Source: Escherichia coli (GTDB lineage: Bacteria > Pseudomonadota > Gammaproteobacteria > Enterobacterales > Enterobacteriaceae). From it: 44,004 nucleotides of DNA. This document shows, in pieces, positions 21,856 to 22,459 of the stretch (positions are counted from its first letter, which is position 1; each line of letters opens with the position of its first letter). The stretch lies in NCBI RefSeq assembly GCF_003334765.1, contig NZ_QOWT01000033.1; one strand, written 5' to 3'. The notes beneath the pieces were generated by a model that was not told the origin of the DNA, searched no databases, and saw only the letters and a program-made list of their open reading frames with translations. Position numbers and translations under genes: made by a program.

Positions 21856-22459
21856 TGTAGTAATCTCAAACTTATATTGGGGTGGTTTGTTGAGGTAATA
21901 ATAGAGCCTTAAATTCAGTTGTGCAATAGCCAGGAATGTAAGGAATTCAAAATTGTTCTTTATTTTGTGCCGCCAATAAATATCTTTTCATAAAATTAGC
22001 CAGAAAAGACGCGGCATATAGCCCTATTTACACCGATGATTTCGCAGCACGTGAGGTTAAAACTTCCTGATTCATGTCACATTTTATGGGGAGATTATCG
22101 TAGGCTGACGACCTTTCAGTCTTCTGTATTAGTTGTGTTTACGAGAATTCCCTATTAAGCGAATGATGAAAAGTAGAACAGTCGCAATAAGAGCATGGAC
22201 TTAGTATTGCACTATCTCCTGGAGGTCAACAGAGGGCTATTACTTGCGCAACAGGTTAAAGATTGTGAATAGTTACCAGCAGTCATTTACCCGCTTATAA
22301 CAAGCGAGGCAGTTGTAATGATAGCTCAGAAGGATTATGCAAGGCTTCGTAAGGGAGAACGCATATACCCACTTCTGTGCATACTGTTGAGCTGAAAAAC
22401 TGACGAATTATGATAAACTCCAGCCAACTTTATTTCATATCATTGAGGGCCTGTGGCTG

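Follow-up and report, generated by a model that had tools for sequence, protein, structure and literature searches.

The hns–tdk spacer of Escherichia coli, a known regulatory region, is probably a shared non-coding control region of two divergent genes

The closest described system is the E. coli hns promoter region (Falconi 1993, 1996; Dersch 1993; Brandi et al. 2020), which is the same locus as the one analysed here. A promoter construct reaching "up to position -313" has been used (PMC7601328), and that publication cites autorepression by H-NS, activation by Fis and inhibition by ppGpp of the hns promoter. A wider comparison is offered by the long divergent spacers csgD–csgB (755 bp), lrhA–alaA (920 bp) and nanC–fimB (1456 bp) (PMC3946193). 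Like these, the hns–tdk spacer is a long type-A spacer that is bound by RNA polymerase holoenzyme, contains multiple protein sites and separates a regulator gene from an unrelated gene. Unlike them, it is shorter, has far fewer documented regulators and carries no H-NS flag: in genomic SELEX, RpoD holoenzyme binding was recorded in the spacer, and the corresponding table does not mark it as an H-NS site (PMC3946193). The hns–tdk spacer is, in short, an already known regulatory region.

Here we present an analysis of this spacer within a window of 44,004 bp, the whole stretch of DNA analysed, which is 100% identical to positions 1,271,068–1,315,071 of E. coli K-12 MG1655 (NC_000913.3; window coordinate = NC_000913.3 coordinate - 1,271,067). 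The hns coding sequence occupies 21442–21855 on the minus strand and tdk occupies 22460–23077 on the plus strand; the divergent spacer between them therefore spans 21856–22459 and measures 604 bp. The initial annotation had described it as an AT-rich divergent interval of 600 bp, unusually long for non-coding DNA, and both parts of this description hold. The spacer is the longest unannotated gap of the 44-kb window (the runners-up measure 488, 392, 356, 343 and 338 bp), and its GC content is 0.396, lower than that of hns (0.466), of tdk (0.422) and of the window as a whole (0.493). Marked AT-richness is confined to the 105 bp adjoining hns (GC 0.333), and the tdk-side half (0.41–0.43) is similar to tdk, so that the AT-richness of the spacer as a whole is moderate. 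Blattner et al. are said to have counted, in 1997, about 70 E. coli intergenic regions longer than 600 bp. RefSeq annotates no feature of MG1655 inside the spacer; the same record does list the 17-aa protein YchT and the small RNAs NarS and RttR within the window. Of 5426 complete E. coli genomes, 5423 contain the spacer with an identity of at least 95%. When one genome per species was scanned, 80 H-NS loci were obtained, 74 of which have hns and tdk as divergent neighbours. These 74 Enterobacterales loci extend from Escherichia to Yersinia, Erwinia, Pectobacterium and Edwardsiella, and their spacers range from 296 to 909 bp with a median of 602 bp (65 of the 74 measure at least 500 bp). The length of the spacer is therefore not a quirk of E. 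coli.

We consider it likely that the spacer is a control region shared by the two divergent genes, non-coding and acting at the level of DNA. Its features are as follows, with a strand where one applies.

21856–21891, minus strand: hns 5′ untranslated leader of 36 nt, running from the inferred transcription start site (TSS) A21891 as far as the base that precedes the ATG.
21898–21926, minus strand: hns core sigma-70 promoter, with -35 hexamer TTGCAC at 21926–21921, a 17-bp spacer and -10 hexamer TATTAT at 21903–21898.
21856–22205, no strand: hns-proximal 350 bp with helically phased AA/TT, a signature of intrinsic curvature; it covers the classical hns regulatory fragment to -313.
21927–22005, no strand: promoter-proximal upstream block, with an identity of 0.91–1.00 in Escherichia and constraint as far as about 21960 across Enterobacteriaceae; a hot spot of adaptive IS insertion.
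22064–22084, no strand: CRP-binding site ttCCTGAttcatgTCACAttt, centred at 22073.5, a novel site with a Kd of 8.1 nM in vitro (PMC12871828).
22116–22132, no strand: conserved island TCAGTCTTCTGTATTAG (TCAACCTTnTGTATTAG in other genera), present in Escherichia, Citrobacter, Kluyvera, Yokenella, Buttiauxella, Cedecea and others.
22126–22200, no strand: Escherichia-constrained block GTATTAG...CTATTAAG...CAATAAG, with an identity of 0.85–0.95 in Escherichia; CTATTA and CAATAAG are retained in Citrobacter.
22246–22290, no strand: Escherichia-constrained block GCGCAACAGGTTAAAGATTGTGAATAGTTACC.., with an identity of 0.94–0.97 against a neutral 0.63–0.74.
22291–22386, no strand: fast-evolving segment, with an identity of 0.67–0.87 in Escherichia, which is near neutral, and not alignable between genera.
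22387–22419, plus strand: tdk promoter, with the -35-like TTGAGC at 22387–22392 and an extended -10, TGaTAAACT, at 22411–22419, overlapping TATGAT at 22409–22414.
22420–22459, plus strand: tdk 5′ leader, with Shine-Dalgarno sequence GAGGG at 22445–22449 and an identity of 0.97–0.99 in Escherichia.

The spacer had been expected to hold the hns promoter, and the hns-proximal end bears this out. In consensus scans, TTGCAC-17-TATTAT was the best promoter match on the hns side, with 9 of 12 consensus matches and 10.5 bits; its hexamers are near-consensus and their separation falls within the 16–18 bp of sigma-70 promoters. The predicted TSS, A21891, was placed 7 nt downstream of the -10 hexamer, and the sequence around it, TACCTC|AACAAAC, fits the published description of C-1, A+2, C+3 and A+6 (PMC7601328). 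The leader is 100% identical across six Escherichia lineages and nearly invariant in Enterobacteriaceae. The -10 block, ATAATAGA, is found in 72 of the 74 Enterobacterales loci, and the -35 block, xTGCAATAG, is retained by most genus representatives. With the TSS at 21891, position -313 falls at about 22204, which means that more than half of the spacer is known hns control region. Core promoter, TSS and -313 fragment all lie within 21856–22205 and agree with the publication. We found no difference from the characterised promoter on the hns side; the published constructs stop short of the tdk-proximal 250 bp, and the CRP site is reported only in a 2026 preprint (PMC12871828).

At the opposite end of the spacer, about 460 bp from the hns core promoter, the consensus scans revealed TTGAGC-16-TATGAT overlapping the extended -10 element TGaTAAACT, with a predicted tdk TSS at about 22421–22426. 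In 73 of the 74 loci, the extended -10 pattern TGnTAnAnT precedes the tdk ATG by 35–56 nt. The promoters named for this spacer in the SELEX study (ATGAAA-17-TATCAT for hns and TTACCA-17-TATAAC for tdk; PMC3946193) lie off the conserved promoters, and we take them to be best-match picks within a low-resolution binding peak. On the plus strand, a hairpin, CTGTG-GCTGATGG-CACAG (22451–22468), has a loop that contains the tdk start codon; the hairpin is retained in Escherichia and in some Citrobacter and is absent from the C. freundii group.

Between the two promoters, conservation is patchy. Using the 4-fold degenerate sites of hns, tdk and galU as a neutral benchmark in a comparison with four non-coli Escherichia lineages, we obtained a whole-spacer identity of 0.85–0.88, against 0.63–0.74 at the 4-fold sites. 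Within Escherichia, constraint is concentrated in blocks at 21856–22005, 22051–22095, 22126–22200, 22246–22290 and 22396–22459, and the stretches 22096–22125, 22201–22245 and most of 22291–22395 evolve at a near-neutral rate. Across Enterobacteriaceae, positions 21856–21960 are almost invariant; beyond 21960, only short islands are kept, namely TTAAATTT near 21991, the right half of the CRP site, TCAACCTTnTGTATTAG, CTATTA, CAATAAG, and the tdk promoter and leader. Such a mosaic of short constrained patches is characteristic of protein-binding DNA and not of a gene for an RNA or a protein. In Kluyvera, Pseudocitrobacter and Citrobacter sp. Awk 4 (L010, L011, L013, L020, L022 and L023), about 300 extra bp next to tdk bring the spacers to 874–909 bp; this extra DNA matched no Rfam family and contained no shared ORF.

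The hns-proximal 350 bp also differ in composition from the rest. The AA/TT power at periods of 9.8–11.5 bp is 8.6 times the mean there, a value reached by 0.8% of 500 shuffles, and the same periodicity test gave no phasing signal in the tdk-proximal 254 bp. The phasing is consistent with intrinsically curved DNA upstream of hns, and with its low GC content (0.33–0.39) and phased A/T tracts the hns-proximal DNA has the curved, AT-rich character associated with H-NS binding. The high-affinity H-NS nucleation motif TCGATAAATT had no match within two mismatches in the spacer. Given the lack of both this motif and a SELEX mark, H-NS occupancy rests on older footprinting, as cited in later work.

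Another candidate regulator is CRP. A Footprint-seq preprint of January 2026 lists ttCCTGAttcatgTCACAttt among its "novel" CRP sites and holds the majority of novel intergenic CRP sites to be regulatory (PMC12871828). The core of the site, CCTGA-N6-TCACA, matches the palindrome TGTGA-N6-TCACA at 8 of 10 positions. The surrounding block, 22051–22095, has an identity of 0.94 among Escherichia, against 0.63–0.74 at 4-fold sites, and the right half-site, GTCACATTTT, is retained in Citrobacter too. The centre of the site lies at -182.5 relative to the hns TSS and at about -350 relative to the tdk TSS, neither of them a position at which activation by CRP is usual.

Further upstream of hns, the conserved island at 22116–22132 is held at a nearly fixed distance from the hns promoter. 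In 33 of 39 island-bearing Enterobacteriaceae loci (L002–L041), 234–239 bp separate it from the hns -10 block; outliers are found in Kluyvera (225–228 bp) and in two loci at 251 bp. The roughly 140 bp between the island and the hns side are hardly alignable across genera. Strict helical phasing of the island to the hns promoter was considered and rejected, the main cluster being 6 bp wide (234–239) with outliers at -11 and +13 bp; the spacing in these alignments suggests a constraint on length rather than on strict phase. An IHF site at the island was likewise rejected: the composite consensus matched the IHF motif, WATCAANNNNTTR, yet a perfect match occurs in none of the 74 loci. The island of other genera matches WATCAANNNNTTR with one mismatch and that of E. 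coli with three, and the E. coli spacer as a whole contains no match within one mismatch. By-eye comparison of the conserved blocks with the TyrR, DeoR, CytR and FNR motifs produced no fit.

IS insertions in promoter regions can activate neighbouring genes, for example bglGFB and flhDC. Published laboratory evolution experiments report "hns/tdk intergenic" as a recurrent target, in which insertions of IS1, IS2, IS3 and IS5 raised hns expression, with a gain in fitness. Insertions from adaptive laboratory evolution (ALE) lie 75, 111, 112 and 116 bp upstream of the hns ATG (window positions of about 21930–21971), and one IS5 insertion lies 258 bp upstream (at about 22113), adjoining the island at 22116–22132. 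The same zone is hit in an isolate. E. coli BE2-5 (L083, NZ_CP032986.1) carries an IS1A 93–101 bp upstream of the hns ATG, with a 9-bp target duplication, CAAAATTGT, at 21948–21956, on the edge of the invariant promoter block; its spacer is otherwise identical to that of K-12. As at bglGFB and flhDC, repeated insertion into a narrow, AT-rich stretch of upstream DNA goes together with up-regulation of the adjacent gene; unlike in those cases, this gene is the silencer itself. IS elements abound in the neighbourhood: an ISZ remnant with its insZ pseudogene lies between tdk and adhE (23359–24338), and an IS5 copy at 28432–29626.

Taken as a shared control region, the spacer may work as follows. 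The DNA upstream of about -60 would serve as a binding platform for nucleoid-associated and global regulators, the net effect of which would be to restrain hns. The literature names H-NS itself and Fis as candidate occupants, and the preprint adds CRP (PMC12871828). Insertions 75–258 bp upstream of the ATG, by separating the core promoter from this platform, would derepress hns; outward-facing promoters of the IS elements would be an alternative source of the effect. The 200 bp on the tdk side, with the exception of 22246–22290, would be weakly constrained filler that keeps the promoters apart, followed by the small tdk promoter. On this account, the hns and tdk mRNAs suffice, and no other RNA or protein product is needed for any feature seen.

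The length of the spacer, and a conservation that is on average above neutral, would fit a hidden gene, and the initial annotation, which saw no confident small ORF or structured RNA, had flagged the interval as a place where an unannotated small RNA or small protein could lie. The first of these statements was corroborated by our searches, and the suggested gene found no support in any sequence-level test, whether Rfam, folding z-scores, structure conservation and covariation, ORF conservation or protein look-up. We regard a small protein or trans-acting sRNA encoded in the spacer as very unlikely. Its candidates would be a 40-codon ORF, an 18-codon ORF with a TTG start, or a transcript from one of two promoter-like sites on the minus strand. 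Across the 74 spacers, no ORF of at least 35 codons is common to different genera. When the comparison is restricted to Escherichia, none of the ORFs of 15 or more codons has an intact counterpart in all five other lineages, and none appears coding-like. Four of these five lineages carry a broken version of the 40-codon ORF (22036–22158, plus strand), and an ORF beginning MMKSRTVAI within 22126–22200 is without its start codon in E. albertii and has no equivalent in Citrobacter. The best-kept ORF is that of 18 codons (22244–22300, plus strand), which is kept in four of the five other Escherichia lineages; it starts with TTG, or in two lineages with GTG, and is preceded at a distance of 8 nt by a GGAG-like motif. 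Against a coding function, the four changes in its conserved part, the first 11 codons, are all non-synonymous, a stop codon occurs at codon 12 in L002, and the frame is closed in Citrobacter; the non-synonymous changes and the closed frame make conservation at the DNA level the most likely explanation. None of six spacer ORFs looked up by exact match among about 15 billion proteins had ever been called.

The searches for an RNA family, a terminator or a conserved fold likewise gave no sign of an RNA gene. An Rfam search of 21200–23400 at E ≤ 10 returned no match inside the spacer, and one of five related loci returned nothing. No convincing terminator with a real U-tract was found in the spacer, the only candidates being 22102–22122, which has a weak T-run and is unconserved, and one at 22451–22473, which spans the tdk start codon. 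Single-sequence folding in 100-nt windows on both strands (54 windows) gave an unremarkable minimum z of about -2.5, and RNAalifold with column shuffling gave a structure conservation index (SCI) of about 0 across Escherichia and Citrobacter. One alifold window within Escherichia, 21881–21980 on the plus strand (z = -2.7), was rejected as evidence of structure because it lies in the invariant promoter block, in which covariation cannot be seen; elsewhere in the spacer no covariation signal was detected within Escherichia. Two promoter-like sites on the minus strand score as high as the real promoters, namely ATGAAA-17-TATCAT (22438–22410), which mirrors the near-symmetric tdk -10 and has a predicted TSS near 22403, and TTGACC-15-TGcAATACT (22229–22203), which has a predicted TSS near 22196 and is absent from the other Escherichia lineages. 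Either could yield divergent non-coding transcription, and a weak or condition-specific transcript, for example one divergent from the tdk -10, may exist; we infer from sequence that there are no transcripts beyond those of hns and tdk. A Dub-seq study reported an unexplained fitness effect of the hns–tdk gene pair on phosphomycin and suspected an intergenic contribution (PMC6338753). A simpler reading of this effect is that hns comes with its complete control region only on fragments that span the spacer. A full-text literature search retrieved no paper that reports a small RNA in connection with hns and tdk at this site, and the RefSeq record of MG1655, in which recently validated small proteins and sRNAs are included, has no entry in the spacer.

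Two other readings start from the CRP site, which combines high affinity and conservation in Escherichia with a position that suits neither known promoter. In one, an unmapped CRP-dependent promoter next to the site would drive a third transcription unit, either a second tdk transcript with a long leader or a non-coding divergent RNA. Nucleoside-salvage genes, the class to which tdk belongs, are often under CRP control, and weak promoter matches do occur nearby: ATGTCA-16-TATCGT on the plus strand (TSS at about 22108) and CTGAAA-16-TAATCT on the minus strand (TSS at about 22085). The view of the preprint that most such sites are regulatory also speaks for it (PMC12871828). However, these matches score 6.5–7.1 bits, against 10.5–11.8 for the real promoters, and the other Escherichia lineages do not conserve them. 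On neither strand is there an acceptable -10 hexamer at the class I or class II distances from the site centre (-41.5, -61.5, -71.5, -81.5 and -91.5), and neither a terminator nor a conserved structure follows downstream. We therefore hold such a promoter to be quite improbable. In the other reading, the hns upstream half would be a nucleoprotein architecture of constrained length, through which cAMP-CRP would exert distant control over the main silencer of the cell, with CRP at -182.5 acting together with a factor bound to the island and with IS insertions breaking the architecture; in a variant, the CRP site would fire an unmapped promoter. The island keeps its 234–239 bp from the hns -10 in most Enterobacteriaceae even though the intervening DNA is scrambled; we consider this reading unlikely.

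With the shared control region as the preferred reading, the useful outcome for a genome scan is a negative one: two conserved promoters and an upstream platform would explain the gap, and no new gene is needed. H-NS silences several hundred genes, so whatever sets the H-NS level matters, and the spacer is among the most frequently hit targets of E. coli laboratory evolution, as is already in the literature. The questions left over, namely the role of the CRP site, the binder of the island and the length of about 600 bp across the order, concern modest promoter biology rather than a new kind of element.

Outside the spacer, the Rfam search did return sub-threshold matches at the terminator between galU and hns (frnS, at 27 bits against a gathering score of 60, the rnk leader and others), which we regard as terminator look-alikes and not as genes. 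This convergent gap, at 21317–21418, contains a strong bidirectional terminator, AAAATCCCGCC-AGC-GGCGGGATTTT.
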